A stretch of DNA of 62,181 nt, the filler included, from Sluysia triapertura (Eukaryota), in NCBI GenBank assembly GCA_046118255.1. It is 5 parts of 5 records of this genome, joined end to end, with 100 filler letters (N's around TTAATTAATTAA, not from the genome) between each part and the next. Parts side by side here need not be neighbours in the genome. Positions count along the whole stretch, not along the records: positions 1 to 11,753 come from JBJNIA010173143.1; positions 11,854 to 27,272 come from JBJNIA010228790.1; positions 27,373 to 38,957 come from JBJNIA010183135.1; positions 39,058 to 50,620 come from JBJNIA010183379.1; positions 50,721 to 62,181 come from JBJNIA010184502.1. One strand, written 5' to 3'. Each line of letters opens with the position of its first letter. The first letter of the stretch is position 1. A program made the translations under genes and the position numbers. This document shows, in pieces, positions 1 through 53,180 of this stretch. The notes below the pieces were generated by a model, which was not told where the DNA came from, searched no databases, and worked only from the letters and a program-made list of their open reading frames with translations.

Positions 1-502
1 AACTCATTAACTTTATCAATTACTTTAGAGACGGATGAAATCATATTTCGAAACATATGCATTTGAATTGTCGAATCGGTATATTCGATTATACCATAAT
101 TCACATAATTGTCTTCATCAATTGTTTCATTTAGGTACTTAGGACATAAATCTTTAGATGATTTCGATATGTAATTTTTTTTGACTTGCATAATCACTTT
201 GTTCGGAATTACGTTCCGCCTGATTCTAACATGGGATGGAAATTGTAAATCGTAAGTTATAAGGACTCTGTTCTGCATTAGAAAGCTTTATCAATGCCGA
301 TAACAAAATTTTGACGGTCTGAAACTTGAATTTTAATTGTTGTCTGGTTCTTTTGATTGTTTTGCAATTCAGTACACTAAACCTTTTTATTATCAGTATT
401 AAATTTCCAATTGCTAATATTACTATAAAATTTTTAATTGCTGATGTTACTGTAAAATTTTTAATTGTCTGGAATCTATTTTTGTCTTCGTTTTCTAGAC
501 AT
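1..502 (-). pseudogene. Decayed intronless cargo ORF downstream of the element promoter; weak Unkempt ZF1-ZF2-like similarity
   Basis: ATG at ~502 is followed by ~24-bp repeats (QQLKILQ-like, with CAA>TAA stops). A frame from ATG 278 stays open to the window edge: ...HVRIRRNVIPNKVIMQVKKNYISKSSKDLCPKYLNE..., loosely like Unkempt RRRRSIRRRDGTFNYSPDVYCTKY. Confidence 0.4.
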
Positions 503-559
503 TTTTAATTGTGAATTGTCTGTAAAACTTGTTATTATTTTTAATCCAGACGAGATCTT

Positions 560-799
560 TCATTTGTCATCCAATCGAGGACGTGAAATCATTAATGCAT
601 ATTTAGCCTCGGTTGGATGAAATTTAATAGGTAAGTTTTGATGAATATGACTGATCACTGACTATCATCGATGCTGACAGTCCAATGAAAGTTATACTTA
701 GGCTGTCATCGTAGGTGATGGCAGCAACCAGTTAAATCGACTTTAATTAAATTTTTAATTTGTTTTATTTTCAGGCACACCGATGGAAATGATAATAAA

Positions 800-851
<52 letters not shown>

Positions 852-1740
852 TTAGTAGTAGTAAAAATGATGGAATTATTGTTATTATTATTACTACAAA
901 GCTTTTTAAAGAAATAAACGCATAAATCTTTGAATCTTTGAAACACATGATCTGTTCTTTTATATAATCTTATCTTTTCTGACATATAAGAATGAAATAA
1001 AAAGGAGAAAGACAAATGTACTGTGAAGGAGCAACAACAACTAAGTGTAAGATGTATCGTTTGTGGTTGTTGCTTCACAGTATAATAATAAAATCTTTAA
1101 AGTTATTTGGAATTTGTTTTGAAAACGTGTAATGATTAAAGTTGTAAATGAATGAATAATGTTAGGATAATTTGTTGGTACTTATTAAAAGGTTTATAGT
1201 TTGAAAACAAGATTTGTGCATTAGATTTAATGGTTTGGAATGTTTGTTAAAAGGTTGAAGTTGTTTTAATCTTTAATGATGATTACAAAATAAATCTTAG
1301 TGTATTATAATATTGTTACTGGCAAGCATTAACGATGAATATGCGCATGTGGAGTGTATTTTGGTTGGTGTAGTAGGTTGGAGGTTTTGATGTAGATGAT
1401 CTATTTTTCAAAGATAATTGTTAGAGTTGTTTGACAAAACTATTATTTTAGGGTTTGTGAAGGTTTCTCTTATGATTGTGATTTGTTTGTTGAAATATTT
1501 AATGCATGAATGTTATGAATTGTTTGAGGTAAAATATAGAAGTTTATTGTGTGATAGGTGGTTGAGATATTAGTTAATGAAGTGTTGTGATTATTGAATG
1601 TTGTTTTATGATGTTTGTGTTGGTGTACTTGAGAAGTAAAAAGTATGATTATTGTGAAGATTGCATTTTGATGAAATTTGATTTATGAATATTGGTTTTT
1701 ATGTTTTGATTTGGTTTAGCAATGAGTGTTGACCACTACA
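560..1740 (-). mobile_element. LTR-like terminal region of the cargo-carrying element family (copy 1)
   Basis: Minus strand starts TGTAGTGGTCAAC at 1740. It is followed by ~650 nt of strand-asymmetric CA-rich sequence, an (ATT)n tract and a CCAAT/TGACAG-rich block at 560-735. The same order recurs at 20620 (+) and 53180 (-). Confidence 0.65.
802..850. repeat. (AAT)n microsatellite
   Basis: Near-perfect trinucleotide run; it explains the poly-L/poly-I ORFs 706..948 and 755..1078. Confidence 0.95.
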
Positions 1741-4700
1741 ATTATTTGTTATATATAAGAAATAATCATGACAATGATCTATGACAACGTTATGGAAATT
1801 CGGAATATCTTTTGGAAATTTTAAAAATTCCGGAAACCAAAATGAATATATCTTAAAGATTTAACAACTTATGCAGAATATACAATGATATTAAGATAGG
1901 TTGTAGGTTAATATACTATTTATGTTTCAAAAATATGGAACCAAGTATTAGAGAATGTTAAATTACCGAAAGATTATGAAATATTTAAGGAAAATGGTAA
2001 TTATTGATTAATGTTAAGAACTTTTCAGCACTTATTTTATATAAATTAATATATTAATAATAATTTTTATAAATTATTTCTTATCTTTAAATATATACTA
2101 AATACCATTGATATTTATAATGTAATTAATTATTCATTGAATAATTATTTAAAAATTCAAATATCAATATAATAATTTCATTAATTTAAATAATTAAATA
2201 ATTTTCCTTTTAAAATGGCAATTTTAATATTTCTAAAATTGAAATAAAACACTAAAAAAAGAAATAAAGTAATAAAATTTATTTCCAAAGTCTAGTCATA
2301 ATAAATTATTAATTTCTTTCATTAGAATTAATTTGAATTCTTGAAATTAATTTTATTTTCTTGTTAATAAAATCATAAGATTGTTAATAATAATGACAAT
2401 AACATTGTTAATAATAATGATAATAATAATAATACCTTAAAATGTAAATTAAGTATTAAAATTTAAATTAAAATTAAAAGAACAAAAAAGATTTTAATTT
2501 TTTTTTAAAACTTCAAAAAGAAAAAGCATGAAATATGTACATTTAGTCACGATTTTTGTTTTAAATAAAAGATAAAATGAAAATATACTTTTGCCAATTA
2601 AATGTAAATGTAAAAGTATCGGTTTTATTATATAATTAATTATATAAAAATATGATAAGTAATTCATTTTAAAAATTATTCATATCATTTCAAAGCATTT
2701 TGATTAATAAATCATGCATATCTTTATGGTAATTTTCAAATATTCAGTTATATTTTGAATTTATATGATCATATAGTCATGTATGATAGAACGGTTCATA
2801 CAATAATATAACGGTTCCACAATGTAACTGTAAAATCGAAATTTATCTATTAACTGAAGAAGAAGAAGAAGATTATAACTGTTTATGAATGATATTAGAA
2901 GCAGCAAGAACATATTTGAATAAAGTATTAAAATTGTTTATTTTGTAAAATATGATTATTTATTATTTAATGCTTTATTTATATTATTTAAATATATTCC
3001 AGATGTTTTTTTATTCAAATCTTATAATTTCTATGAATTTGAATTATCTTTTTACAGTCGATTAAATAAAATCTAAAAATATATTTAAAATTAATTATGA
3101 CATTATCTTTTATTAATTTTGTGTTGCAAAAATTTATTTTAAATCCCTTAATTGACAATAACTTTATAAATCTTAAAAAATACTTAACGTAAAAGACGTA
3201 TTGTTAGTTCAGGATAATTTCTCAAAAAAGATTCTTATTTCCAATGATTATAATTCACATTCTTCTCACTAAACAACCCTTGAATTACAATGATAAATTA
3301 GTGACCCTCTTTTTTATATCTGTAGCATATCTAAAACTACAAATGATGAATTTATATAATTAAGAAATATTCTATTACTAATAAATTCAATTTAAAATGG
3401 TTACTTTTTATTAAGTTTACAATAGAACGAAGCATGATCATTCAGTTAGACAGATTTACCCTATTCCGTTATAGCATTGCAATTTTAGAACTAAATATGT
3501 TCTACAGTTTTTGATAATTAATACTGTTCTACGTATACATTGAATAAATAAATAATATGCTGTCAATTGGTAGACACAAATAATGTATAGGCAATGATGG
3601 TTTTGTCAATGAATGAATAATTTACCGACAATTTTAAATAATAAATCTACTATTAATTGTGATGTATCTTTTTATAATTTTTAAAAAATAAAATTAAATA
3701 AATACATGAAATAATTATTATATTAAAAATAGTTTATTTACTAAACAATTTCGATAGATAAACAAAATTGTTTATACATTTTTTGAAAATAAATATTTAT
3801 TAACTAATTTCAAATATCTGAAATGATTTTAATTACAACAGACAATTGATAACGCTTAAAGTTTTAATTAATAAAACAAATTTAAATTTTATGGATTTAT
3901 CTATCATTATATATTTTTAGATTAACAAATAATTTTTGTAATAACTTTTAAAAACATTTATAAAAAATTGTACTATAAATAAATATTTAAAACTTTGATT
4001 TTATTTATGTTTATTAATATATACTGTTATAATTAAGATATTTATATATATTATATCGTTATAAAACAAAAATAGAGTTACTTTTCCAAAAATGAAACCT
4101 AAAATCCTGGAATTTTGGCCAATTTCCATTGATTTTGATTGGCTAATGACTTATTTATTATTCGAAATTTTGGACAATTTAATAATGTTTAATAATTCGA
4201 GGAATTTTATTTATATTGTTGTTTTTAGAAAAATATTTATAAATTATTAAGTTTTTGTTTAAATTGTAAAGCCGATTTCACGCACTCCATGTACTTACTA
4301 ATATACAAGTACATACTAATACATGTACATACTAATATACAAGTAACTTAAATTAATAACTTGTTTTTAATCCCTAATTTACTGCGGATTAAAATCCTTT
4401 TTTATAATACATATATTAAAATAAAAGACCCAAGAAAGGCTTTTATTATAAAATGTCTCTATTATTTTATTCTTTTGTTTATTCAGATCATAATTACAGA
4501 GTTTTATAATCAACTTTCATATTAACTTTGTTACTTGTTTAAAATTATGCAAATCAAAGTTGTTCCAAAAAGATTGATAACATTGTGGTAAATTTAGTTT
4601 GCCTTCTAAATTATTGCATAAATTAGAATCCTTCGTGTAATTAAATAAGATAAATACAAAGATACTAATACTAACTGTGACATAGAATAGAATAGACCCT

Positions 4701-8191: not shown

Positions 8192-8800
8192 TTATTTTAT
8201 TTTATAATTCATAAAACAAAGACAAAATTTATTCATTTTTATAAAATTTTTAACATGTAAACTTAAATTTTGTTCTGTGTCGGGAAGTGCCATCAAAGAT
8301 AATATCAGTTCGTGGATTCTACGATGGTGATTTGTCAACTCTGACGTCCAACCAAAAATATCTACGATTTTAGACGTATTATGTGAATACAAACAATTAC
8401 TGCCGAATTTTGAACACTTCCAACTTTGGGTCGTACCGTATAGACACAAACCGGACTTGAAGATTGTTGTTCGTTTTTGTTATGTACAGGACTGATGGAA
8501 TCATTTGAATTCTGGTTGTAAAAATATCACGATCAATGATGAAGTCTATCTATATGTGCAACTTTATCCGAGTAAAAGTTTTAGATTCTAAATCTAATTT
8601 TTGAGGATTGTATGAAAAGGAATTTGTAGAATTTAACTTCATTTCTCTATCACTAATTTTACTATTGATATGTGTCAATACATCCGGCTTTCATCGATAA
8701 TACTTGAATTGTATCTAATAATTCGCAAGCTTCAATCATTTGTTTATTTGATATTCTTGTCTCTTTAGGCTTTATACAACATTCATTGATAACTATAACT
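8192..8800 (-). pseudogene. Unkempt-like CCCH zinc-finger cassette (frameshifted), directly downstream of the E(z) fragment
   Basis: FKSGLCLYGTTQSWKCSKFGSNCLYSH is C-x9-C-x6-C-x3-H (8381-8446), the spacing of Unkempt ZF3 as recalled (YKTGxCIHETDxxGxCxKNGLHCAFAHG). An upstream FIIDRDIF motif is shared with the 51.6 kb copy. Confidence 0.6.
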
Positions 8801-8809
8801 GTATTACAG

Positions 8810-9675
8810 TAGGATGGCTTATTATACATTGAACTTGGTGATCTGCATGGATACATAATAATAATGATCGGAATGTATGGGTTATTTTATCACGACTGTG
8901 CCATAATATTTTACTACTTACTACGGTATTCGTTACTTTTGTGTTATCTTTAAATTTTATTTCTAACTTCGTCATTTCTGACTCATTATCAAAATTCGGT
9001 GTCACTTTGTATGCAACGTGTTCATTTGAACTAAAAATATCTAAATAACGATTTATTAATTTATATTTCTTATATATTTGTTGGACATACGGTAGCAGTT
9101 CGATCTAATACTTTAAAACTTAATAATAATAAACTTAATAATTAATAACATCAATATTCTTTAAATAAACACTAAATAATCTTTCATCAAAATTAAAAGG
9201 AAAATTTACATACAATTTACCTTTGTAATTATTTAAAAATTCATCAATAAATTTTACATCATGTTCATCACTCATGTAAAGAATATTTGTTAATTTAGTT
9301 TCATCTTCCACGCAAAAGTTTTGTTGTAATGGAGTCCAACTAAACATATATGGACGTTTTACAGCATGATTTAATAATTTTACACAACTACGGTATAATT
9401 TATTATTGCTTTTAATTTCAACATCATTATGTTCAATATAAAATTTAAGAAAACGAATTTTTTCTATAAAAGGTTTTAGATCACTGATTTGGCGTAATTT
9501 TGCCGATTCTTGCTCAATAAATTCAAAATTTTCTATTAATAATCCATCTGCATCACTTCGCCTCTTAGCAACAGTATAATTCTTTAATCTATTACATCCT
9601 TCTTGAACTATATCAATTATTTCGTCAGCTACTATTGTAGTTTTAAGTTCATACGATTTTTCAACTTGTGCTCAT
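8810..9675 (-). pseudogene. Intronless E(z)/EZH1/2 N-terminal fragment (SBD-EBD-BAM-SAL-SRM-SANT1, start of MCSS); no CXC or SET domain
   Basis: The open frame 9671-9135 contains VKLLNHAVKRPYMFSWTPLQQNFCVEDETKLTNILYMSDEHDVKFIDEFLNNYKGKL, versus EZH2 [60 protein letters not shown]. After stops/frameshifts come VTPNFD and SRDKITHTFRSLLLC, versus CTPNID and QREQSLHSFHTLFC. The ATG at 9675 is one base out of frame. Confidence 0.88.
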
Positions 9676-11753
9676 TAAATATTTTATTTTTTTAGCGTAT
9701 TTTAAATTTTTGTCATTAATTCAGTTGTTACTAATTATAGTGTCGTGGAATGTGATTTTATGTAGAGTGTGTTGAATTAAATTTAAAATATTTCAATTAA
9801 TTTTTAAAGTACCTCTTTGTTGATTTTCAATGTTGAGTATGATATTGATGTTATGGAATTTTATGTCTAAAGTGTTTAAAAATAGAAAAAAATTGTGAAA
9901 TATTATGAAAGGTGATTTTGTTATGTAGTGATGAAGTAAAACTCCAAAGCAATGGGTTAAATTTTATAATAATAATATTGGTAAATTTATTTATTTTAAT
10001 TATTTATAATTATTTAAGTTCAAGTTATGTTACTTTCTCAAACAAAATTAATGAAGTTAGTAAATTTTGCTACAAAATATTTTAATAATTATTGTTTTCT
10101 TTCGTTTAATTATATTCTTAAATTAAGTAAGATGATTTATTAATTATTTAATTTTTTTATAATTAAAAAAAGAATTCATTATTAAATTATTAAATAATTT
10201 TTATTTTGTTCATTTGCTTTGCATATTTTTGTTGTTCTAGAAAAAGATAGTTGACGATTTAACAATGAATGAACTTTAAGATATTATTTTAAGTAACGTG
10301 TTTCATAAATGTACAAACAAAATGTTCAAATCAATTTCATTATATCATTAAAAAGCATAAATGACACTTTTAAAGATTAATATACAAAACATCATTACAA
10401 TCTCACCGAAGTTGCCAATTTATTATTTAAATATCTACTAATAAACATATTTTACACCTAAAGCAACACTTTTTAGAAAATGTTACAATATTATTCATTT
10501 TAATCCAATTTGCATCTCAAAAATTAAAGAAAAAATTATAAATTTCACATTACAATAATATTACAAATTGCCAAAACTATAAAAATAATTAGAGAAAAGT
10601 CTACATTTATTGGAATATTAATATTTTAAGGTATTATATTTGTGCAAAAATTAATATTAGTTAGCATTATTTTATAATATGTTTGGTCATAATACTATTT
10701 ATGTACATTCATGTTGTAGTTATGTGTTGTTTTACGCATATTAGTATTCATCTTTTTCATTTCCATTTAGGTGAAATTAGTACATTTCTTCGTATTCCTG
10801 GTGCTGCCATATTTTTGTACATTTGACTACGTTTTTAGTTCCACTTTTATTATTCTATCATTCATATTCGTTTATTTATTTTGATGTTACGAAAATATTC
10901 CCCGATTTATTTTATAAATATTTCATAAATTTAAAAGTATTATTTCATAATTTTCTAAATAATCGTACAAAAAGACTTAATAAAATTTAATACCAAAGTC
11001 AATGTTAGTAAGATAAAAATATATACTGAAAAACAAAACATACAAATTAATAAAAATAGTTTTATCTGGAAATATTCCATTACTTTAAATTATTTACATA
11101 AATTCCTAAAAGATTTTTCTTTAAAGGATCAATGAATTTTAGAAATACAATTTATTATTAGATTTATTATTGTAAGAAATAATTATTCTATTTAAAGTTG
11201 CTTTAGAAAATTGAGCTGTAATACTAAACCTAATTAGACAAATGAATCATTACTTTTATTTTAGATTTTCGATTAATGTTTCAGTAAGAATAGTTTTCCA
11301 TTTTAAATAAATACAGAAAATAATCAAAGTTAAGAAAAAATATAATGAAAATATCAATATTTTAAAAGTTCACAGAAAATGTGTTTTTCTTTTCTCATCA
11401 CAACTTTTGAATAGTCAGTTAATGAATCTTCGTGGATTTCTTAAATTCAGAAGTTTTACTTTTATCGTTCATAATATATGTATAATTAAAATATTCCTAT
11501 ATATTTTTCTATATTTTATATATTTTTCAATTTTCTAATAAACATTAATTGATTACTGAAATTTTTTATTGGCTTCAGAACTGATTTTGTTTGATTATTT
11601 TTTTTCATTTTATTCAATAATTTAAGTAAACAAAATTTTATTTATAACTTTTTCCATTTTGAATCTTTGTGCGTCAAAATTTTTGTATTTAATTAAATTA
11701 AATACAATTTGTAAAATATAATTTGTATTTAATTATAATTAAAATTATAAAAT

Positions 11754-11853: not shown

Positions 11854-11859
11854 TAATTA

Positions 11860-19000: not shown

Positions 19001-20619
19001 TTAAAAATAGATTGCTTAAGAACTTTATAAACTTAAGAAAAACTTAGAAATTTGAAACAGTGCACTCAAAATAAGAAAAAATGGAACTTAGCCATGAAAG
19101 TAAATGCAGACTAAACATGAAAGCCAAAAAATTGCGAAACGTGAATTACGAACACAACGTATGTAAATATAGGTATTATAATGTTTGGAGATATAATAGA
19201 AGGTAACAAATAAACAAAAATATGAAAATATGAAAATATTATAAATTGACTATTATGTGTAGAAAATTTGCCACATAACTGCAAAAATATATGGAATAAT
19301 TTTGTAAATAACATATAAATACATTTTTATTAACATTTTAATTTTTTATGTGTATATTTTAATTATAATTTTGTGTGTGATTTTATATATTTTATTAAAA
19401 TAATTTTTTATTATAAAATAAAAAAAAATAATTAATGTAAAAAGTAAATAAAAAGAATTAATTGAAATAACTAAAATTATTAATAGATAATAAATAATAA
19501 TTAATTTATAATTTTAAATTTTATTAATTCATAATAATTTTTATTTTTATTTTATCTTGTTTAACTAAATTAAATTCCAAGAACAGGTAAGACGGCGATC
19601 TGAAATCTTAAAATTAATTTAAGTAGGACAAATTTTTAATAGAAAACACACTCAACAGAAAAGAAAATTTTGGTAGAAGATAAATTCAAATATTTAGGCA
19701 AATATCTAATATCCATGCATAAGTAATTCTTTGTTTATTAAGTTTCTTCCACCTTATAGAAACATTAAAGGTGTAAAATCTAGTAAAATAATTTTATTTT
19801 GTCTAGGCCATAACTGGCTAAATCAATTTTTATCTAAACTTGAATAGTTACCTTTTGTTGTTATAAGCGTATATTTTAACCATTTTACATTAATAAATCT
19901 TGACTAATTTTATTGTGTAAAAACTAGACCGTATCAGGCTAGTTCAAATTCTTAAAACCATTTACTAAAAGATACTAGACAGTACAAAGGCTACTTAAAA
20001 CTATATTGTAATTCTATATTGTAAAACTATATTTTGTAATTAATAAAATTAAACAGCATACTTGATTAGTAAAATATTAAAATATTTTACGATAGAAGTA
20101 AGACAGTCAAAATGTTCACATTCACTCACATTAAAGTAATTCTTACATTTTTTGCAATTTGATTCAAAATCCTAATAATACGTCTTCCACGTTGATATAA
20201 ACCGTGTATATTAGGTGGACTCGACTTTCAGATTTTTTGTAAGTGTAAGTTTTTGCTTTCCAATAAAACACTTGCAATTTGAAGTAATACAGAAGACATA
20301 AGAATACTTTTTAAAATATTTCATGACATTTTATTGTGAAACAACTGGTATTTGAAATATTATTTCGAGACTCATTATTCTACATGCCATAATACCGTAA
20401 CATTAAGGTATTCCATCAGAATATCTATATTTAACACTTTTATTATCAATATGATAAACATTAACCTCAATACACAACAATTAAAAACAAATTAACAATT
20501 AAATATCAACTAAATCTAACACAAGAATTAAAAATTTAACAAATTACGTAAAACAACCAAAATATGCTTTAACTTTCTGGAATTTTATAACTAAATAACT
20601 TTTTTCACAAGATACCAAC

Positions 20620-21720
20620 TGTAGTGGCCAACCCCTTAACTCAATAATAAAACAAAATTTCATCACATCAAACAACACCACTTATCACACCCTTCAAACA
20701 TAAAACACACTCAACTCATTCCATAAACAATAAAATACAATCTTAACACTTCACCAAAATTACATCTCATAATAAATTAATTTACACCCGAACATCTCCA
20801 ACTCACCAAACTCCCACACTCATTTCAACAGCTTAAAACACTCACTCACTAAACACCTTATCAAAATTCACAACATCAATTCATCAAACACTTCATCAAC
20901 CAACTCACAACCACCACATAAACCTTACGAAGCATAAACACAAGAACACTCAAATCATACTTATAACCATTTCAGAAACAAAGACTATCAAACCTAAAAC
21001 AAGAAGCAATAATAACATTCAAGATCCACTCCACACAATCATACCCATCATCTTTAATCATTCTAAAAACACATATACAAAATTATTTCGCAACAACCTT
21101 CTCATTTTATGCCTTCCAATATGTAGAAAATACAAAGATAGACAAGATCGTGTAAAAGAGTTGAAAGGATATTAAAGTACTTATGCATTTTATTATTTTA
21201 TATTATCATCATTCTATTATTATCATTATTTCCATCATTCTTATCATCATTGTCATTTTCTTCATTATTATTCTTATTATTTCAGTATTACAACTATGAT
21301 TCTTTATTATTTCTTTATTATTATTATTATTATTTAAGTAACTAATATTATTATTATCAATTTTATCATTACTATCAATTACTATAAAGTACTTTATTAT
21401 TATTTATTATTATTATACATTAGTATCAATCATTATTATCATTATCATCAATCTTAGTAGTATTCATATGTATTACGTAATAATTATTACGTGAATACTA
21501 GTATACATCGAATTTTCAATTTGTCATGGCAGTCAGCGAAGCTATCAGTGTGTGTGATGGGCTGATGGTGCACAGCAATCAGCCAATAATAATGCAACAA
21601 TCAATAATCATCAGCATGATTGTAAAACAATCAATCAGCCAATGGTGAATGCGTGTATCCATAGACTAAAACTGGAGATCAGCCTTATGATTGGCGATTA
21701 AAAAATTTAATATGGCACAC
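20620..21720 (+). mobile_element. LTR-like terminal region of the cargo-carrying element family (copy 2)
   Basis: Starts TGTAGTGGCCAACCCCTTAA at 20620, followed by a CA-rich tract to ~21120, (ATT/ATC)n, and a block with AATCAGCCAAT x2, GTCAGC and TGATTGGC at 21520-21700. Confidence 0.65.
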
Positions 21721-24700
21721 AAACAATTAGACAATAAGTAAGCAGTGAAGATAATAATTACGCACACAACTAAAAAATCAAGTTCAGTGTACCAATCAAA
21801 ATCAAAATGTGATGTGTTGTTTTGATGTGTTTATTTACAATATTTACCATAAATAAACTTTAACCGAATGACGCAACTAATAAAGATCAAACAAAAAACA
21901 ACACTTGCCATGTAATACAACAACCAAAAAATATTTACACAACAATTATAATAATCACAAGGTTATTGACACTAACATTTACTCATGGCTACAATCTAAA
22001 ATTTAACATTGTTATTAAATTTATTGTTGTTATATTACTGTTTGTTATTATTGTATGCATTTATGTAAAAGATATCCCTGTGTATATGTATCTACAACTA
22101 AGCTTCCTTGAGTTATTACTTTTTATTATTATTTATTACTATTTTTATTAATAATAAAGGTAAGGTATTTTTTATTAATTGTATTATTACTTACAATAAT
22201 TTATTATTATAATTATAACTATTATTACGATTATTATTTGTCAATTAATGAAAAATCAAAAATAACATTAGTGATAAATAAAATCAATCTTTAATAATAG
22301 TGATAATAAAAATCTTTATTATAATATAATCATAAAGTAAATCATAAAGTAAAAGTTACAAATAGATAATGCTCGAACTAATTACTCTTTGATAACACTA
22401 ATAGTATTTAATGATGACTTGTGCGTGAAGTCTGAATATGATAGTGATTCTTGTAATGAAAAAACCTATACTAAAATTAATGACGATAAAACACTGAATC
22501 ATTTTAGTTATACTGCAAGGACGTATAATAAAGTTCAAAACATTCACCCACTTCAAATCAATAGTTATTCACTAAATCACAATCATTCCTCATTCTTCTA
22601 TCATCACAGTCACTTAAATTATTAACAAATGATAAAATTTTATTTTATCGTAATTTTTTAATTTTATTTTTTTAATTTTTTTATTTTAATTTTTACTCTT
22701 GATAATTAATAAATTAATAATTAATAATTAATAATTGATAATTAATAAATTCTTGTGAATTAGGTAACTACATTTTCAACAAAATCGCAAGAGATAGTTG
22801 TAAAGATTCAAATCAAAGATTTATTATGGTGGTAAAATGTTTAGATATGTTTTATTAATGTTCAGAGGCGATTAGAATCGACAGAATATCAATATAAATG
22901 AATTACTTTAAATTTTGTTAAATTTTACATCGTTAATAATGATTTAAATATTATTATTACCTCTCAAACAATATTAAGTATAAAAACAATTACAAAAACA
23001 TGGTTTAAACTTGTTAGATTTCTTTTCTGTTACATGTTTTATGAAATTAATTTTCCTTTTTTATATTGTTCACTATTATTTTAATTATCGTTTAATAATC
23101 CCTATAAAATTTGAATCATTGTTTTATTAGGCTATAAATTTTGTTTCCTTAAGGTGTTAGAGAATGTAAAGTTAAATAAATAGATATTTGATATAGGAAC
23201 TTCTAATTGAGCTTCTGCAGATAATCATGAATATTTCTTTGAAGCATTACCAAACATCCAAACAAACTTAACTTATTCAAATGAATATCCTAACCGATTA
23301 GTCTCCAAAAGAACATTTCCAAAATATTTAAAATTTAAAATTTAAAAATACTATGTCACACTACTGATAGTCTTAATCTTTAAGTTTTCTGGATCTTGGA
23401 GAAGATTTCCATATTACCATAGAGTCACAGAAGAATTCTTATAACAAAATATTCATTGATCAAACATCATTTACTTGGAATGTTGCACTAAATTAAAAAA
23501 AAGAATTTTATTTACTTTAAATTATCATTTTTTTCAACGTCTCTATGCTATACCGATTAATGATCATAAAGAAAATTTAGCGACAATGAAGGATAATGCA
23601 TAAAAGTTTAGGTTATTATCCAAATTTGGAGTGATCATTTGATTCATTGTTTTGAGAAAAGCTGGTATCGAATACGTGATTATTCGACGAATGATTTAAA
23701 TTTAAAAATCCGTCAAAAAAAGCTAAATTTTGATGTTTTTGACGTTATTTTTTTATTAAATATACTAACAAAATTATGTGACTTGGTTTGGAGACTATAA
23801 ATCCGGAAAATGTTTTTAATACAATCTATAGGCTTTTCAAAGCACAAGTAACAATCAATAATCATAAAAATAAAACTTGTGCTACCTTTAGTTTGTGTAA
23901 AAAAATTAAGATAAACATAATTTTATTTTATTTATAAATTATAAATTCAAAATCAATATTTAATTTATAGGAACAAGGCTATTTATGTTTATATTAGAAT
24001 TTTAAATAGTTATTTAAATTTGGTAAACATTTCATAGAGACATTTTCGTATATTTTATATTTAAAATATATTTTTCTTGTAATCAATACTTATTAAGGTC
24101 TATAATAAATATGGATCAGAAAGATGAATCATAAAGATGATGTTAAAAGTAAAATGTAACATCTATATTTATAAATATATAGCTTTATCAAATGGTAATA
24201 TCAATTAAATATTTAACGAGCTCAATATAACCAATAATTTTGACAAAAGTCAATCAATTTGACATTTTATTGTTATTTTTATAATATTTTCTAAATACTT
24301 TATTATTGGTAATTATATATTAAGTTTATATTTCATAGATAATCTTATTGACACGAATAGGTGTTTATAAATATTGAATTTTATAATTTTATTGATTTTA
24401 TATTACCAATTTCCTTTTAATTTCAATTTCATAATAATATTCAAAATAAAATTAAATAATTTCCATATTTTGTTCTATTAAAAAAATTAACTTTAATTTT
24501 AATTTTTAATATTGAATTCTTACAAGAAATTTATTATATTTACAATTTTTTATTTCCATTAGGAGCTAAATATTTGAAATTGGTTATTGCTATATAGTAA
24601 TAAAAATTATATCCAATATCAATATAACAAACATATATCAAACAGATATCAGTATTCTAGAATCATGTTATTTTATGAATTTTTAGTGCCACATATTATG

Positions 24701-25465: not shown

Positions 25466-26960
25466 TTAATAAATAACCAATTTTACTATTAAATTTAGTT
25501 GTGTTCGTGAAACTTCAAACTTCATGGTTGGCTGCGCAGGTTCGTTATCTAGTAATCTCGAATCTAAGATAATACTCGTTCCTTTTTGAGTTCGTGCATC
25601 AGCAATTGAATTTTCTCTGCATTCCATATATGGGTATATGTTATGTTTAAATGTTTTGTGTATATTGTTTATACATCGTGATTTGTCAGAGATGGTCTTG
25701 CCTCTAGTCTCGTTAAATATGAAGAGGGCAAATCTTCCATTTATTAAGTAATCTGTAATTTGTATACAAATAATTCTATTGTCTACGAGTAATAAAGAAT
25801 TTATTACTTTTAAAATTCTCATGTATGTGAATATTAGCCTAAATACAATTTTAAGAATGAAAGCTTTGTAGTTATGTTCAATATACATCTCATTAGTATT
25901 AGTTGTAGTCTTCGCTACTTTAATTACAACCTTTAATTTAGAAATGTAGAAGATCAATGATTTATCGTAAACATTTTCAAATTTTGCATTATTAAAGTAA
26001 AATATATAAAAATAACAAAGATAATTATTTATTGGTGTTCTAAATAAAAAGATGGTATTAAAAATCGTTTTAAGTTTTGTAAAATTTTCTGTACACTCTG
26101 CCTCGTTCCAAGTTCCAGTTTCACTAAATTCTAGCTTGTCAGAACTATAATAAATAATATATAAATACATGTTAAAATAAGTGGAATAATAAAAATTTAA
26201 TGTGAAAACATTACCTTGCCCTAACCCGGAATGATTGCATCTGTGCATACTTGAATTGAAGAACAGAATTAACAGGAACAACTCCGCATCGTTAGTGTAA
26301 TTTAATAAATTAATTTCTTTACATCTATGAAGTTGTGTTGTAGTTATATCATAATTGTGTAATGCATCGTCTTTACGTGTAAAAAGTTGTCTTTTCATTA
26401 TTCGGGAAGTATATAAAAACATTACACTAAATGTATCATCTTTACATGTATAAAATTGTTTTTTGATTATTTGTGAACATCTAATAACATTACGCTAACT
26501 GTATCATCTCTAGATGTATAAAATTGTCTTTTAATCATTTCATGAATATCTAATAATATTACACTAAATGTATCATTTTTACGTGTACTAAACTGTCTTT
26601 TCATTATTTCAGAAACATCTAATAACATCAGACTAAAAACATCATCTTTATGTATACGAAATTGGCTTTTAATTACTTTATAAACATCTACTAACATCAG
26701 ACTAAAAACATCATTTTCATATATACAAGGTTGTCTTTTAATTATTTTATAAACATCAAATGGGATCACACTAAAAGCATCATCTTTACGCGAACATGGT
26801 TGTCCTTTCATTATTTGAGAAACATTTAATAACATTACACTAAATGTATTATCTTTACATGTATAAAATTGTCTTTCGATCATTTCGTGAACATTTGACA
26901 ACATTACGCTAAATGTATTATCTTTACATGTATAAAATTGTGTTTTGGATCATTTAGAGT
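25466..26960 (-). pseudogene. Intronless cargo gene of unknown family with N-terminal 23-aa tandem repeats; split by a frameshift (ORFs 26467..26904 and 25466..26422)
   Basis: The repeat FSVMLLDVxExxKRQFxTxKDDx continues into the start of the 318-aa ORF. The gene lies immediately downstream of the family promoter block at 27100-27272. Confidence 0.55.
26360..26955. repeat. 69-bp tandem repeat, ~8 units
   Basis: Recurring AACATTAC(A/G)CTAAATGTAT(C/T)ATCTTTACATGTATAAAATTGT, with a period of 23 codons. Confidence 0.9.
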
Positions 26961-27099: not shown

Positions 27100-27272
27100 G
27101 TGAATTAAAAAAATGATGACTTTGATTGGATAGAGTATTGGTAAAATGTTGATGACTGGTTATTGATTAATAAATGAAAAAGACTGATGGCTGACCACCA
27201 TCAAGACTGACAGGTCAATGTTAACATGAAATTGGCTGGCAGCATTGGTGGCAGCAACCAGTGCTATCATCA
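27100..27272 (-). promoter_or_regulatory. CCAAT/TGACAG-rich promoter-like block of the cargo element family (copy 3, cut by the scaffold end)
   Basis: TGGCAGCAACCAGT and CTGACAG-(G)TC(C)AATG are shared with 670-735; several ATTGG boxes. Confidence 0.55.
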
Positions 27273-41403: not shown

Positions 41404-41439
<36 letters not shown>

Positions 41440-41561
41440 TCCATTAACAAACATAATCCATCATGGTATTTTATTTTATTCTTCTATCAATATTCGTTTC
41501 CTTCTTATTTCTTCCCTACAACATTCTTGTCTACCATCATTTTTCGATACCCCCAAAAAAT

Positions 41562-41574
<13 letters not shown>

Positions 41575-41592
<18 letters not shown>

Positions 41593-41783: not shown

Positions 41784-42384
41784 TTTGTTTTATTATGGTC
41801 AATGATAGGCCTGTACCCTATCATTATTCAGTAATTGACTAATGATGATTGGTCGATCATTCATTAATGCAATAAGAAATACAAAATTAGAAAATTCATC
41901 ATTTTTGAAAGTTCTGAAATATTTCGCTGAAAATTTTGAAAAAAGTTAGAAATAATAAAATTAAATTCATTTTGATTTATGTAATCACAGCAATGAACAC
42001 TATTAAAACCTCTATAATTCCTATTTCTAGGTACACTGTAAAACTTCTTTTATTTCTCACCTTCTACCAATTCCCCATCCATACTTATGAAAAATTTTAG
42101 AGATCTCTTCGGTACTTTCAAGAATCTAAATGTTGGGAAGGACCCGTAAGTGGACCCAAGTTTGTAACTCCGGAATCAGAAGGAACAGAATCTGACATTA
42201 TCAATGAATAAAAATAATTTATACATTGTTTATACCTTTATTAAAGGAAAATAACTTTTTCAAAAAACTTCTAGCATTTTCTCACTATCAATAATACTAT
42301 TATTATCATTATTTCCAGTGGAAATAAAAGAAGTATTACAGATATTGTAGAAGGACACAAAATACATCAATTATTATGTCTTAC

Positions 42385-43007
42385 TCGTCTCAAATCTGAA
42401 TAAAACTGCAAAGGCAATATTTCCAAACATTGATATTTGGCACTGATATTAATTCTGGGATGCTCATGATCTTTTCGAGACCGCAAGTATTTTAAGAAGC
42501 CGCCCGACTGTTTCGAAGAAGATCCACCAGACACGGAATTAGTTGTTGTGACATTACCAAGAAGACCACTTTGTCGAGAAGTGCTAGGGTGTCGTAGTAA
42601 CGAAGCGGTGTTGTAGGCAGTGTTATTGGAAGAGAGAGCTGCAGCATCTGAACCATAGTCACCGCTATCACTACGAGATGACCTTTTCCATTTCACACTG
42701 CTATCTTTACTTCTGGAATCTGAGGGTAGACAAAACGACAACAATGACTGATGATCGTCACTGTGATTCGATACGAAGAAACCAGCTCGATCTTCAAGCA
42801 CCTTGTTTTCGTTGGGAACTGCACTTCCACTGACGCAACCCACAGCCGATTGTGATGAATTAGTGTAAGTGTGACGCGTACTAAGTTGATTGGTTGGATT
42901 GTTTAACGAATCAGAAACTGTTGAATTAATACTGTGCTTCTGCATGACGATCTTTTTGCGAACATCGTTTCTTTCGCACAATTCTTCAATTGGAATTGTA
43001 ATGAAAG
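42385..43007 (-). CDS. RasGAP gene exon: C2 domain C-terminal part with a long Ser-rich insertion
   Basis: CCCAG acceptor, AFITIPIEEL..., ending PRINISAKYQCLEILPLQFYSDLRR|GTAAGA; matches family IKARFQxxxILP. Confidence 0.88.
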
Positions 43008-43766
43008 CTGGGAAAAAAGAGTGCATCAATAAACAATTTGTAAACAATTATTTATTTATCCATCTTCAGTTTTGAATCGTGACGAAACAAATAATGATGA
43101 GGATAATCAAAATACAAATTTCTTGCAAGTGGTTGGAAATATCTGAAAAAATATTTCGATCTTTGACATGTTTAATTCGATGTCTTCGTCGTTAATAAAA
43201 TTTCTGGAAGAACAACAAATTTAATTTGTTTAAATAAGTTCCAAGTCGAAGGAAGTGTTGCAAGTCAAATTTTACAATGAATCGTTATTAATTCATCAAA
43301 ATATAAACATTAACTGTTTGAGTCCGGCGCAGCGCGATAGCGCTTTTCTTGTTTTGTGTCGATAATGCGAAGATGCTGCTGCTGTTGGTAAAAAGGAGTT
43401 CGTGGAATTTGTGCAGCAAAACATTTTGTAATAAGTGAAAATAAAAAATATTTTGTTTGCTCAAAGTTACTTATTACATAACAATTAGTGTTAATTATAA
43501 CCATTAACCCAGAAAGTACTACGCATTTCATTCCGGACTTTTTGCATATGCATAAGAAAATTCTCCCGCACTCAAACGGTTAATATTTTTGGCAGCTCCA
43601 AGGACACCACTAATATGCAAATGGGGTTTCTCTATTTCAAACAATATGTTATTCCACTTAAATTACATTTTAAACACTAATTTTAATTATTTTGATAAAA
43701 TATTTTGATAATTATTACAAAACAAAATAATAAAATAATCATAATAATAGTAACTGTATTATTATC

Positions 43767-44191: not shown

Positions 44192-47100
44192 GTAAAGTAT
44201 CAAACTTCTTATTAAAATATAATATAATAATAATAATAAAGAAATAATAATAATGAAACTAATGTATGGACAATTACATCATACAACATTGTGTGGTCAC
44301 GTCAAAAGTCAATATAATAAGATCACAGTAAATTGTGTCATTACCAAATCCACTATTTATTAATGTTTGTATATAAATGATAAAAATACTATGGAAAGTG
44401 AATGTCGTCCCAGTGTTCCAGAGTCAGAGTATTCAATATTCAAACTAGCGAAATTAAATTCGAGTCTGTGTATTAATAAAATTATTAAAAAATTCGCGAA
44501 TATTTAAATTATAAAACATCAAATACATTACGTAAAGATAAATATTGTTTTAACATCTTAAAGATAAACAGTCAACTTTAGACTTAGTTTAGTGCAGATC
44601 AATTTTATTTTTGCCCTTCCATCGGGACAGATAGAACTTCAATTATTTAATTATTTAAGTGATAAACTTCACGAATTTGTGTATCTTATTTCAGATATGA
44701 TTTCATTAACGAAAATCCCAACATAATCAAATTAATAAATAAATAAATATTATTATTATCATTATTATTACTATTATTATCATTATCACTATCACTATTA
44801 TCATTATTATTATCATTATGATTAACTAGTGTGTCTAGTGTGTCTTACCACCTACAATTAACTTTGTTTCATTTATTTTGGTATTGTCGCTATTTTTATT
44901 ACTTAAGATTATAAATGCTGACTTTTCTTCATTGATTTTCAAGTATTGATTTCAAGATTTTTATTTATTAGTAATAAGCAAATTACTTAAACATGTTCCA
45001 CGCAAGACGATGTTATAACGATTGCTACAAAAATTTACTTAATAAATAAGAAGTAAATATTTGTTAAATATTCGAACTCAAGTCAGTCATCCATGTTTTC
45101 ATTGTTAAATTACACCATAATTCCAAGTTTATGATCCAAGCCGATGAAGTTAATTATTTAGATCCATTTCTATACTCTGTTCCAAATAGCGTTCTAGTGA
45201 CTTATTGTCATGTTCAACTTGAACCTTATATCGCAACACTGTGGCTACTGGTTAAATTGGCAAGGCATTCTGTTATCATCGATTCAAAAATTGTCTCTAT
45301 CAACCATGTTGATGCAAAAAGCGAAACAGTTAATTAGCAACCTTATTGTTTTAGAAGTCGGTTTAGTCCTGGATAAATACTCTCAAATGATCATTTTTTC
45401 ACGACGCTGAAACTATATGAAGTAAGCAGCTTTCTATTCATGTTGTTAACTACTTGTACGAATTCACTCTCCTAAGTTCATTTAGTTACGCCGTGCCGTT
45501 CTAATATAAACTTGTTCAATTTTTATTCAATAGTTTCGGATTTCAAATTTAATTTCATGAAGTATAAATGATCTTATTATTGTCTTTTCTTTAATTAATT
45601 GTGTCATTAAAAGTAATAATAATCATAATCATAATAATAAAGAATTTGTAACTTCCGATAAAGTATCATGTGTCAGTCAAATACATACTTGTCTGACATT
45701 GTCCGTCCTCGGCAGTGGATATGTTACATATTGATAGTAATAATAAATGTTACTAAATATCTGGCAGTCTACAATCAGCTGCTGTAGAAGTGATAAAAAG
45801 AAGAGTAGTACTCCCTAAATAAGAAATATTATGAGTGATGTCTTATTTCAGAGTAGATATTGCATTTTATTGCATTTTCTGATCAGTACTCCGCATTATA
45901 AATAACAGTGACCTTCAGTGCTAATTCACATTTCATGGGATTACAGTTGTGTGTGTGTGTGTGTGTCAGAAATAGAAAGAATGTGTGTAATTAAATAGAG
46001 TAATAAAATAATTCGATACCAGTTGTTTTGGACTTGTAAGATTACTTCAGACCATCTAACCAAGTTTATTGGGATGCATTGTCTATTTGTGTGACAGCAG
46101 TTTTTCAATTCTTGTAGTGGAATTCGTTTTACCGAATCAAGACAGACGAAGATAAATGAGAGTGCAGAAACAAGAGTAGTCGTCAGTGGTAATATGAAAT
46201 TAATAACAGTTACAAAACTAAACCCAATATAATTAGTGAGTCTTATATTTCATAATTTTATACTACACTCCAATTCAACTCAATCCACTCGGCTTAAAAA
46301 CATTTTATTCCCAAGAAAAATCGAACATGCATATACATTAATCAAGCTGTTTCCATTGCAACAATGGTGTTGAAAAGTAACAATTTGAAGAAGTACATTG
46401 TAGCTTAGCATATGATTTAAAAATACTAAAAGAGATATTTCTGTTAATATATGTGAGACAGACTTAAAAAGACGTTTATCAAGATTTATTGACGAAATTC
46501 ATTCTAAACTTGTATTATATGTCAGAAGTCGAACACACGTTTCTGCACTACAAGTGTTCACAAGACAAGAAGTCTTCGATATTCATCAGTATGAATCTGA
46601 TAATGATTGTGGTAGTACGGTGCAAATTGCTGCTCCTTATATGTACTATTTGTATAATAAATTCCAATAATAATTATTTCAGTAATTCCAATATTAATTT
46701 ACTGCACTATAAATTATTCATTTTTGTAAATTTAATATTAACAACTTCTACAACTATTAATAATTCTTTAACTATTCAGCAACTATTTAATATTAATAAT
46801 AACTGTCTGCAATAGATAATTTTAACTCTAATACAATTATTAACTGTTTGCCACAAATCGAATAACAATGAAAATCTCACATCGATTCATCATCAAGTGA
46901 TGAAAATGATGAAATGATGAAAAGCCAAAAATCAAAGTCATCTTGGAATGATTCTTCATATTTCAATTCGACTGAATTAGTTGCAGCATTTTTCAGACAT
47001 TTATATTCACTGTTTGCATTACGACTTATTGCAGCACTGTCACAATGTCGATGCTCAGCTTGATGACCCAAATAATTAAATATCTATTAAAAGCATATCA

Positions 47101-48477: not shown

Positions 48478-48779
48478 TATTATATTTGCAGTTAATATCA
48501 TCAATTACAATTCACAATCGCATTTGACCAATAATGACCTGAATCAATAAACCAATAAATCGATAATGAAAATAGTAATATTAACAATGCCAGCAACAAA
48601 TCTAAGAAAAGTCTGAAAATAAATACTAGAATCCAGCCAATAAAAGTACAATTCTAAAAATAGAAACGAAATAAAAATATAATCAATGAAATTAGTAATC
48701 ATAGTAATGTCATAAATAAAACTGAAAATCGCATAACCAAATAAAATACAGAGTGAATCAGAAGTAACCAGGCAATCAT

Positions 48780-49200
48780 GATATTCGTGTCCTAAGTGTA
48801 CATAAATGCGTTTACATGGACCAGTCGGTTGATTTCTTGATGTAAACTACCAAGAAGGTCATGTGAACACATCTTACAAATAGTCCATTTAAGTGTTCTG
48901 AATGCATGTGAATACTCCTGATTTCTTTCTTTGAGTGTGTTAAAGAATTCAGTGTAAGCCGAGAACAAAAGATCAACTTGTGTCAATGACAATCAATTCT
49001 TGCACAGAAGTTAATGAAGACTTATGCCGAAGTGTTTGCTATTCTGTCGTTCGAAGGACTGCAAAATACATTGAAGAAGGCGGCCAACATTTTGAGCATT
49101 TACTCTGTTAGATTATGTATATAATTTTAATATGAATAATAAATTGGATTTTTATAACTTGTCATCTGTATATAGAAAATTCTGACTCTAATATTATTCA
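48780..49200 (+). mobile_element. Tc3-like (Tc1/mariner superfamily) transposase C-terminal relic
   Basis: VRRTAKYIEEGGQHFEHLL at ~49050-49105 matches the typical GGxHFEHLL C-terminus. Confidence 0.65.
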
Positions 49201-49430
49201 GTGCAGAAAACGGTACAATATGAATAGGGACGAATAAGCACTGGAAATGCCAGATAAGGTAAAATGCGTGTACGGAGTGGTATGGTGCACGTGGATTGGT
49301 GAATCAAGGACATAACAATTGAAATACAATCATTCATACAGGAAACACATATTTCAATGTAAGAGAAAAACACAGAGCAGCGAATTGATAGATACCGCAC
49401 TAGCAAGTATAATTAATCACGATGGGTTCC

Positions 49431-50620: not shown

Positions 50621-50720
50621 NNNNNNNNNNNNNNNNNNNNNNNNNNNNNNNNNNNNNNNNNNNNTTAATTAATTAANNNNNNNNNNNNNNNNNNNNNNNN
50701 NNNNNNNNNNNNNNNNNNNN
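50621..50720. other. Artificial scaffold linker
   Basis: N44-TTAATTAATTAA-N44. Confidence 0.97.
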
Positions 50721-51131
50721 ATTTTAATATATAAGTTAGAATTTTCATTTATTCTGTGAATATATTGAAATTTAGAGGATAATCAACAATTAGTAACTAT
50801 TTCACAATCACTGAAGATACATTAAAAAATTTTAGAATTAATTTAACTATTAAATTCTTGTTACTAATTTGGATTTAAAACCGAACAGTGAAATTATAAA
50901 ATTTTTATTGAAGATTTAAAGTTTACAGAAATTGTATTTAAAATTTTATATAATTTATTAAAATTAAAATAAACATAACTTATTAAACATTATTAATAAC
51001 ATTTATTAACATAAATTTTTTTATTGTTACTTGAACATATATGCTCCGTCCTTCATAAAATCCTATTAATAAAATTATGAAATTATTAAAATTAAGATCA
51101 AGAGTTATAAGATTATTAAAAAAAACATAAT

Positions 51132-52198
51132 TTACTTTATTGAAGTCTTTGTTGAGATTAGTACCAGCTTGTTAAATCCATGTGCATACGGACAAAGATC
51201 TGCATATTTGACGCATTTACCTGACGATGTGGATTGATAAGGACAAATTGCGCATTTTAGAAAATTTATTTTATCATTTACTTCTCTTTTTCCATCATTA
51301 GTTTCCACATTAATTGGACAGAATGACATATGATCAATTGCCGTTTTGGTATTTAAATCTTTCAATGCATTGAGATTCGAATTAATTACATTTGGAGCAT
51401 CATTATGTAAATATTGTAAATTTAGATGTAAATTTTTAGTTTTATAAATTTAGTAAATTTAATTTAGTTTATATTACTAAATTTAATTTAGATTTTATAT
51501 TACCAACTAAATTTTGTTGAAAAAATAATAAATTAAATTTTAAGTATAGTTTATTTACATAATTAAAATGTTATCTTAGTAATCACAAATTAACGTTTCT
51601 TTGTAGAAACAATGGATTATTTTATAGAATTAACTGTTAAATAAATCACGATCAATAATTAGAATTTCTTTAAATTTAATATTCCTAAATGAATATTGGT
51701 GGTGGAATGAATTGGACCTGTAGAACACTCGATACGAAATTGATTGAAATAACACATTTTCTTCTTGATATTCTTTAATTGAAACATCTTTGTCACGTCC
51801 TTTAGATTTTCTACACGTTGATTTCTGGACGGAACATAATAAGTAGACTTGCAAGTTGGTGGCGTTATATCGATTATCATAAGTTGAATTTATTAATAAT
51901 TTTAATATCATAGCTGGTTGAATTATCATTGGTAGAATTTGGTAAGGCCTAAACACCATAAAATACTTGACATTTGAACCGATACGTCGATTAACTTAAA
52001 TAGTTCTGCACTTAATTCCAATTTTGATTTTTGAATAAAATCGTGATTTTCAATGGGTGCATTATAGTAACTAAGATGCTTATGATAATTTGGTGAGGAT
52101 AATGATTTATACAATTTTAAACGTTTAGCTGCTAATAGAATCGGTTTTACCACAATGTGTGAATGTCTTGTTGTTAGATTGACTAATATTGGTATCAT
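51132..52198 (-). pseudogene. Intronless, frameshifted Unkempt-like tandem CCCH zinc-finger cargo gene
   Basis: CPINVETNDGKREVNDKINFLKCAICPYQSTSSGKCVKYADLCPYAHG versus Unkempt CPFLHRTTGDTERRYHLRYYKTGxCIHETDxxGxCxKNGLHCAFAHG. Upstream lie LKNIKKKMC..C..H (ZF1-like) and IIDRDLFNS. Confidence 0.7.
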
Positions 52199-52269
52199 TA
52201 AAGCATATATTAACTTACATTATTAAATTTTTATGTCGAACTTTTAACTATGTGTATTTTTATTTGTGT

Positions 52270-53180
52270 TAGATGATCGATAATTGGTCATCCAACCAGA
52301 ATTGTTTGTCTGGAAATTTACAAACTTGATTCTGGTTGGATAGCCAGTAACATTGATGCAAAATTTATAATTATGCTAAAATAATCACTGCTAATGATTA
52401 GCCATCATCAGTGTTGACGTAAATATGTCAACAGTAATGCACAATTTCAACACTTGTGATGGTAGTAACAATTTTTTTATTAAATTAATTCAAATTTATG
52501 AAATTTTTCATAATAATAATAATGATAAAGCTGTTATTATTCCTAATATTACTTTTATATAAAAAAATCAAAAATGCATAAATCCCTTGTAATAAGTATA
52601 CACGATCTTTCTAATTTTTCCTATGAATTCTTAACATATCTTAAATTAACAGAGAAATAAAATTTGCATATATTTAGACTAAAAATCTTTAGTCGTAATC
52701 TTATATGGTAAGAATGCTTTTGTTATGTGGTAAAATGTAGGATGTTAGAGTGAATTTCTAGAAAATAACTCATGTTTTTGACTGAAAACGACATTTAAAC
52801 ATTAAGAGATTGCGAACAAAAAATACATTAAGAAGAGGGTGGTTTAGTAAGTGTGAAACAATAAATTATAGTGTAGCTCTTAGTATATTTGAAGGTTATA
52901 GTGCACTGTTTTACGTGATTTGTTTTCTTGTTGTTTTGAATGTTATTATATTTTGTGTTGTTAGTAGTTATGTAATGATAAATGATGGATTTAAGGTGTT
53001 GTAATTGATTCGAAAATATCGAGTAGATCATTTCAAATGTAGTTGTTGTTTGATTGTTATGTGTTTTTGATGAATTTGTTGGTGTAAATTGATGGTATTG
53101 AATGTAAATGTGAAGTGTGAGTATTAAATGTTAGAGGTTGTTTTATAAAATTTTAATAGTATTAAGGGTTGACCACCACA
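52270..53180 (-). mobile_element. LTR-like terminal region of the cargo-carrying element family (copy 4)
   Basis: Minus strand starts TGTGGTGGTCAACCCTTAA at 53180, followed by a CA-rich tract and a promoter-like block at 52280-52440 just upstream of ATG 52198. Confidence 0.68.

Follow-up and report, generated by a model that had tools for sequence, protein, structure and literature searches.

What kind of element ends in the short terminal motif that recurs on three unrelated scaffolds of Sluysia triapertura, and what are the reading frames that lie behind it? The question is posed by a stretch of 62,181 nucleotides of the assembly GCA_046118255.1 (the window, in what follows), in which five scaffolds with lengths of 11-15 kb are joined by N44-TTAATTAATTAA-N44 spacers at 11754, 27273, 38958 and 50621. 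Our analysis supports an old family of dispersed repeats that end sharply in TG/CA and hold variable inner open reading frames (ORFs), seen as copies A, B and C, each with one visible terminus, and as a truncated copy D. We give about an even chance to the reading in which all four are old, diverged promoter-to-end parts of a long terminal repeat (LTR) of Ty3/gypsy type, the G/T-rich strand being sense and the ORFs antisense.

The family is defined first by its end. The 13-mer TGTRGTGGYCAAC, which an initial annotation had reported at 1740(-), 20620(+) and 53180(-), is indeed exact at these places on three scaffolds and has no further exact match in the 62 kb; an order-2 Markov model expects 0.0016 occurrences, for a motif that was defined after the fact. 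Allowing up to 2 mismatches gives 6 matches against a shuffle mean of 1.3 (6 reached in 0 of 100 shuffles), and two of the three additional matches are the inverted ends of a Tc1-like element (36225/36653). The termini and the sequence next to the first of them are:

1728..1740, minus strand: terminal motif of copy A, TGTAGTGGTCAAC, which reads ...GTTGACCACTACA on the G/T-rich plus strand
20620..20632, plus strand: terminal motif of copy B, TGTAGTGGCCAAC, an exact match
53168..53180, minus strand: terminal motif of copy C, TGTGGTGGTCAAC, an exact match
1753..2050, plus strand: 3' fragment of a long interspersed nuclear element (LINE) outside terminus A, a possible insertion junction

The outer flanks of A, B and C, when compared, share no sequence beyond the motif. 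Outside A the LINE homology to other copies breaks off about 13 nt from the terminus (chance about 0.02). The scaffolds end inside or beside the repeat at A, C and D, as assemblies are expected to break at repeats. Self-BLAST of the window gave no paired second copy, and no scaffold holds an inverted partner terminus (the end of D lies off its scaffold); a second element end and a target-site duplication are likewise absent from the window, where one end per copy is present. Two sites with TGTAGTGG, at 46113 and 44014, were dropped since they have no skewed tract, and GGTTGGCC, which resembles an inverted terminus in the repeat at 18460/59222, is at chance level, the hairpins there not being significant.

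Inward of the motif the three copies share further parts, which together with those of D are as follows:

1020..1727, plus strand: G/T-rich tract of copy A, the proposed U5 (G-C skew 0.63; C/A-rich on the minus strand)
20633..21100, minus strand: G/T-rich tract of copy B (skew 0.81)
52660..53167, plus strand: G/T-rich tract of copy C (skew 0.55)
916..953, minus strand: second block of copy A, AGATCATGT..TTATGCGTTT, reading YGCATAART..ACAYGATCT on the G/T strand
21145..21190, plus strand: second block of copy B, with the conserved word pair
52572..52608, minus strand: second block of copy C, with the conserved word pair
788..851: AAT/ATT microsatellite of copy A, a tandem repeat
21190..21445: ATT microsatellite of copy B, a tandem repeat
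641..732: CCAAT/TGACAG block of copy A, which aligns to block D
21520..21700: CCAAT/CAGC-rich block of copy B, by word content
27100..27272: block D, cut off by the scaffold end short of a terminus; homologous to block A
52270..52460: block in promoter position of copy C, the weakest of the four, its alignment not above chance

The CA-rich tract described earlier behind each terminus is real: the strongest C-over-G tracts of the window are those of A, B and C, and stretches of 300 nt with a C/G skew above 0.55 and an A/T skew of the same sign occur only there and at 9701-10000. On the G/T strand the tracts contain 21-30% G and 3-6% C; they align marginally, their scores being reached in 1, 3 and 10 of 100 shuffles. 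Homology is carried by the second block, AGATCRTGT-N18-27-TTATGCRTTT, missed in the initial annotation, which is present in all three copies and absent elsewhere in the window; AGATCRTGT itself occurs three times in the window, once per copy, 525-787 nt inward of the motif. One shared degenerate 9-mer is commonplace by chance (112 of 427 random triplets). Any ordered word pair appears in 3 of 300 random triplets, and the observed 8 pairs were reached in none of 300. Since chance does not explain the ordered pair, A, B and C are, by this comparison of words, homologous over about 1 kb, though divergence prevents end-to-end alignment. The promoter block connects A with D (27020-27272) at a score of 53, the shuffle maximum being 28 (0/200), and B with D marginally (6/200). 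Ranked among 250-nt stretches by CCAAT/TGAC/CAGC words, D is first, B third and A fifth; C falls outside the top 20.

Behind these parts lie the frames that we call cargo:

3..504, minus strand: cargo A, a 92-codon and a 95-codon open frame that overlap, with a 9-aa repeat, running off the scaffold edge
21864..22622, plus strand: inner frames of copy B, 95 and 90 codons, of uncertain coding status
51135..52219, minus strand: cargo C, frames of 97, 121 and 105 codons that end in an Unkempt-type CCCH finger
25469..26949, minus strand: cargo D, frames of 160 and 342 codons with 8.5 repeats of 23 aa, a predicted beta-solenoid

Three cargos, an Unkempt-like gene, a 23-aa-repeat gene and a Q-repeat gene, all intronless, had been placed behind the termini. 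The first stands, and copy C is the only firm case of recognisable cargo behind a visible terminus: its finger matches Pfam PF25427 (E-value 7e-7, below the curated cut-off) and PDB 5elh (E-value 0.007), and by domain similarity this accessory ORF is Unkempt-derived and would have come from the host. The strand opposite to its inward strand has no frame of 60 or more codons. GT..AG intron-like stretches at 51558-51507/51477 and 51135-51063 mean that cargo C may contain short introns, and the intronless state holds for the long frames of D. The 23-aa-repeat gene is cargo D, which has no terminus in the window. Its frames are well beyond chance, the expected numbers of ORFs being about 1.7 at 95 aa, 0.16 at 121 aa, 0.005 at 160 aa and 0.001 at 178 aa. 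The repeat (69 bp x 8.5) is modelled from the single sequence at a predicted local distance difference test (pLDDT) score of 73 in one of five models, and the predicted beta-solenoid has generic matches (best Z 13.9, root-mean-square deviation 2.5, 156 aligned, 14% identity). No homolog of cargo D was found, nor a viral match at E 0.001 or better, and Atlas was uninformative. Word-indexed protein searches were blank for cargo D, the E(z) frame discussed below and a RasGAP exon; these blanks carry little weight because E(z) relatives missed there turned up otherwise. The Q-repeat reading of cargo A runs through a frame with 13 stops in 92 codons; its 27-bp x 2.6 repeat is open in another frame and reads IKNF-type. 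The fold predicted for cargo A is of low confidence (pLDDT 56, best Z 5.8), and an EF1-gamma domain was rejected (Pfam E-value 0.043 among 15 queries, without support from PDB sequences). The frames of copy B match no Pfam family, their lengths are within chance, and they contain no recognisable gene. In the comparisons made, the cargos of A, B, C and D show no relation to one another.

How should these parts be oriented? The initial annotation took the ORFs as sense; judging by the sequence signals, the reverse is more likely. The sense strand would then be the G/T-rich one and the motif the 3' end of the LTR (...GTTGRCCACYACA). Toward that end all three copies show, in this order, the CCAAT/TGAC enhancer block, the AAT microsatellite, the TATA-like YGCATAART, ACAYGATCT, (A/C)ATAAA, a G/T-rich tract of 500-700 nt (the proposed U5) and the CA end. 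On the G/T strand the three copies keep YGCATAART and ACAYGATCT 24, 32 and 23 nt apart, and ACAYGATCT and (A/C)ATAAA 51, 42 and 56 nt apart. The parts of an LTR come in the order U3-R-U5, and this layout would fit a TATA box, a start, a poly(A) signal and a GU-rich U5, labels that we infer. The enhancer block would also fire backwards and so drive, in U3 or the 3' internal region, an accessory ORF that is antisense to gag-pol. Different subfamilies would carry different ORFs, at least one of them (the Unkempt finger) from a host mRNA and gained during reverse transcription. Mobility of the element would rest on reverse transcription and integration of the ordinary kind, and the present copies are decayed.

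What lies outside the termini bears on this orientation:

20611..20617, minus strand: TGGTATC, resembling a primer-binding site, two bases (GT) outside terminus B; one of four such 7-mers in the window
55041..55556, plus strand: remnant resembling a gag capsid, 1.9 kb beyond the terminus of copy C and on the G/T strand of that copy
57115..57378, minus strand: second gag-like remnant, about 4 kb beyond the terminus of C; over 47 aa it shares 43% identity with the first

Outside B about 300 nt of sequence is G/T-skewed (0.43). Calculated from word frequencies, the chance of TGGTATC near one of three ends is about 5e-4, and that of any TGG about 0.12. This suggests that the outside of B resembles what follows a 5' LTR, namely a primer site and a leader. 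The earlier statement that no gag or pol gene lies inward of the motif agrees with our scans. The Pfam scan covered 148 of 186 ORFs of at least 55 aa, plus 15 read-through regions, and the 148 ORFs include no pol family; a search of the window for reverse transcriptase and integrase motifs was blank as well. The remnant at 55041 has an Atlas score of 0.87 with DUF4939/Retrotrans_gag clusters, to be taken as a lead only, and no gag match in Pfam or PDB; as parts of the element the two gag-like remnants are a candidate link. The setting as a whole is full of gypsy remnants.

Several points weigh against LTR 3' ends with antisense ORFs. The remaining four of six same-strand promoter-block pairs are at chance level; by alignment, the CCAAT/TGACAG block once attributed to all copies holds for A and D and marginally for B. 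There is no TGG outside A or C, and TGGTATC is the plant/fungal initiator-methionine (iMet) primer start. The outer flank of B does not align to either of the gag leaders in the window (score reached in 85 and 118 of 200 shuffles). Upstream of the blocks we found neither a polypurine tract nor the 5' start of an LTR, which may lie beyond the scaffold; the G/T tracts are preceded by purine runs, but these are ambiguous. The window lacks a reverse transcriptase or integrase motif, a second copy and a target-site duplication. The TATA-like word also resembles a POU-type site, which has no direction. A version with a shorter LTR, made of the G/T tract alone with an internal promoter, would fit equally well. 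Finally, the planarian Initiator TTTGTTTAAATA, as given in Table S3 of PMC10558129, is unlike ACAYGATCT.

The closest alternative, which we consider unlikely, keeps the ORFs sense: the motif would be the LTR 5' start (TG...), the C/A strand would be sense, and the ORFs would lie in or just after a multi-kb LTR, like the upstream ORF of Burro or ORF1 of Ogre. LTR ends are short inverted repeats, so TG... suits either end, and the CCAAT block precedes the ORFs by 100-250 nt, as is normal for a promoter. For a Burro-like element of Dugesia tigrina, too, PMC6431247 describes an accessory ORF in upstream position. However, none of the three termini has a polypurine tract outside it, no LTR end with a primer-binding site separates the block from the ORF, the second block and AATAAA make sense on the opposite strand only, and the word outside B that resembles a primer-binding site would be left unexplained. 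Somewhat less credible still are the ends of a DNA transposon (Pack-MULE-, Ginger- or Tc1-like) that has inward terminal promoters and gathers host fragments, B and D maybe being two ends of one element. The motif is 11/13 identical to the inverted ends of a local Tc1-like element (36225, 36653), of which a related copy holds a DDE_3 remnant (E-value 3e-4), and B and D are oriented toward each other over 6.6 kb; yet TA adjoins none of the three termini on the outside, the B and D blocks are barely alignable (6/200) while D matches A on another scaffold, no transposase is linked, and the E(z) fragment looks processed, which argues for an RNA step. Least probable is a non-mobile origin: the copies would be promoters belonging to a dispersed host gene family that evolves fast, or old segmental duplications with decayed genes behind. 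In favour of this, tissue-specific promoters of planarians often contain CCAAT boxes (PMC10558129), cargo C may have introns and the window has two Unkempt-type fingers. Against it, the homology stops sharply at the TG/CA motif, at a distance of about 1 kb from the reading frames, those behind A, C and D are mutually unrelated, and both ordinary host genes (RasGAP and Ig-domain) are without these blocks.

A gene fragment on the first scaffold may belong with the repeat family. It was not noticed in the initial annotation and is, with the finger that follows it, new here:

8859..9671, minus strand: N-terminal E(z)/EZH2 fragment, intronless and SET-less; a 178-codon frame, then three stops in the same frame
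8195..8479, minus strand: Unkempt-type CCCH finger 3' of the E(z) fragment (Pfam E-value 1e-4), in another frame
9741..10000, plus strand: TGTCGTGG followed by a G/T-rich tract, a possible LTR 5' start, about 70 nt from the E(z) frame

The 178-codon frame (9671-9138, minus strand) matches EZH1/EZH2 in PDB with E-values of 1e-13 to 2e-12, and the fragment aligns to residues 12-282 of the full-length, 777-aa E(z) P0001 (39% identity, E-value 5e-46), which we take to be the SAL/SRM region. The alignment keeps one frame across three clustered stops, without an intron-sized gap. A tblastn search of the window with full-length P0001 gave nothing of CXC or SET, or of anything past residue 282, at E-values up to 1, and 8.8 kb of scaffold follows. 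A short database relative diverges from P0001 near residue 100, a point past which the window sequence continues; this suggests an intron in that relative which is absent from the fragment, and the fragment looks processed, which would point to an RNA step. The fragment shares an E(z) signature, presumably flatworm-type, with 12 of 135 database matches. In a tree of 17 matches hand-picked from the 135, the fragment is sister to P0001 (100/98), a placement that is unsure given its long branch (1.82 vs 0.16). Under simulated neutral decay the 178 codons stayed free of stops in 59, 19, 3 and 0 of 200 runs at 90, 80, 70 and 60% protein identity; the fragment has therefore been maintained in coding form, provided that its distance from the E(z) gene of the host is large.

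The finger at 8195-8479 is related to that of cargo C (0/1000 shuffles); the word IIDRD, common to cargo C and the E(z) gene, is a chance match (264/1000 shuffles). The tract at 9741 has the same polarity relative to the E(z) ORF as in A, C and D, but does not align to A, B or C, is without the second block and has no polypurine tract before it. The link of the E(z) fragment to the repeat family is suggestive only, and indirect. A bolder proposal, which we regard as improbable, is that the SET-less E(z) piece and the Unkempt finger occupy a swappable antisense slot of a flatworm giant gypsy lineage, as coding host fragments under selection. The product would enter PRC2 in place of E(z), a catalytically dead decoy shielding the element from H3K27 methylation, and A and TGTCGTGG at 9741 could mark where the two LTRs of a single element face its interior, the E(z) ORF standing beside the 3' LTR. 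If the fragment is cargo and binds PRC2, a transposon would be carrying a Polycomb decoy in the stem-cell system of an animal; otherwise, what remains is a decayed family of LTRs that hold accessory ORFs, together with a processed E(z) paralog of an unusual kind. The SET-less fragment with its Unkempt-type finger (8195-9671, minus strand) merits study, whether element cargo or not.

The window as a whole is 75% A+T. By this base composition, by the kinds of repeat present (PMC11410931) and by the E(z) signature, the host is probably a triclad flatworm. Host genes are represented by RasGAP exons at 39686-43047 on the minus strand (Pfam E-values 2e-10 and 1e-7) and, recognised by eye, by Ig-domain-like exons of an ordinary host gene at about 29000-29930 on the plus strand. 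A genetic code with TAA/TAG as Gln was rejected, the three RasGAP frames holding none of these codons in 562. No tRNA or Rfam match was found in the window. Besides the four copies, LINE-like, Tc1-like and gypsy-like remnants are spread across it. Seven pieces apparently belong to one LINE 3' region (1753-2050, 27540-27741, 28108-28449, 30469-30683, 34969-35300, 39058-39276 and 44846-44950). A GC-richer, decayed non-LTR element at 14100-18000 (plus strand), presumably of R2/NeSL type, shows by eye reverse transcriptase-like and cysteine-protease-like stretches and has no Pfam match; an Asp/Glu-rich coding-like stretch (13450-14050) stands directly before it. The repeats at 18460-18995/59222-59801 (plus strand) and at 20167-20340 (plus)/57600-57790 (minus) each carry AAATCC...GGTGGAC and account for all four GGTGGAC of the window; in one of them a gag-like frame begins about 440 nt downstream. 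They are possibly the U5 and primer-binding-site regions of other gypsy families. A repeat common to 11854-12480 and 60672-61010, with a degenerate WDCP zinc-knuckle-like word on the minus strand, is likely a gag remnant. The miniature element at 36220-36659 is Tc1-like and bounded by the inverted ends CAGTGGTGGYCAAA; its relative at 32716-33159 holds the DDE_3 remnant. Two copies of a tRNA-like A/B-box sequence (41720-41810 and 27374-27423), called by neither ARAGORN nor Rfam, are probably a short interspersed nuclear element. A decayed coding-like stretch with Cys/His clusters at 48478-49400 (plus strand) adjoins an internal assembly gap and has no meaningful Pfam match.

How, then, does the family compare with known systems? 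A literature search made mostly without subscription papers, the original Burro paper among them, yielded no planarian giant retroelement with an accessory gene derived from Unkempt or E(z), and no LTR element carrying one. Drosophila telomeric non-LTR elements have captured pieces of silencing genes (nxf2, piwi, aub); these measure 140-235 bp, share 76-95% identity with the host gene and work by way of piRNA (PMC13534243). The E(z) piece here, in contrast, has about 800 bp and 39% protein identity to the nearest full-length E(z), because of which it could act only as protein. The role proposed for it resembles that of VANC in the Arabidopsis VANDAL elements, a transposon-encoded anti-silencing protein, but VANDALs are DNA transposons, and their proteins are sequence-specific DNA-binding proteins directed against DNA methylation, not a truncated PRC2 subunit (PMC5735166). 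Planarian giant retroelements are known for host-like polyprotein domains (PMC6431247), and with Burro/GYPSM1, a planarian giant gypsy element, our family shares probably the kind of host and the element class, as well as accessory ORFs and host-like domains; decayed Burro fragments are also reported in Dugesia japonica (PMC6431247). By this comparison the repeat family may belong with planarian Burro (PMC6431247, PMC8532177, PMC13238120). The hallmarks of Burro/GYPSM1 are a total of about 30 kb and a polyprotein of about 5,000 aa, and the scaffolds here are shorter. Its domains include MATH, BIR, BCL2, ankyrin, Smc, SUMO-like, dUTPase and env (PMC6431247); MATH, BIR, BCL2, ankyrin, dUTPase and env are absent from our scanned ORFs and read-through regions, the polyprotein region being outside the window. 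Conversely, the Unkempt finger, the E(z) fragment, the 23-aa beta-solenoid and an antisense ORF are not among the features described for Burro in the accessible part of PMC6431247, a comparison by description only. Of the original proposal, gypsy-element ends with accessory genes, what stands is the dispersed TG/CA-ended repeat, its variable ORFs and the gypsy setting; a giant of the Burro kind is not demonstrated. The two short conserved words offer a handle for retrieving the whole family and its cargo from a long-read assembly. Extra antisense ORFs with their own or LTR promoters are known from the plant elements Grande, RIRE2 and Retand and from HTLV (PMC7264820). In these plant lineages the ORFs show conservation inside each family and no recognisable host origin (PMC7264820), whereas here they vary among copies and one is Unkempt-derived. 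The arrangement in Grande, RIRE2 and Retand, with an ORF antisense to gag-pol that lies there between pol and the 3' LTR (PMC7264820), is the best working model for the layout of our repeat family.

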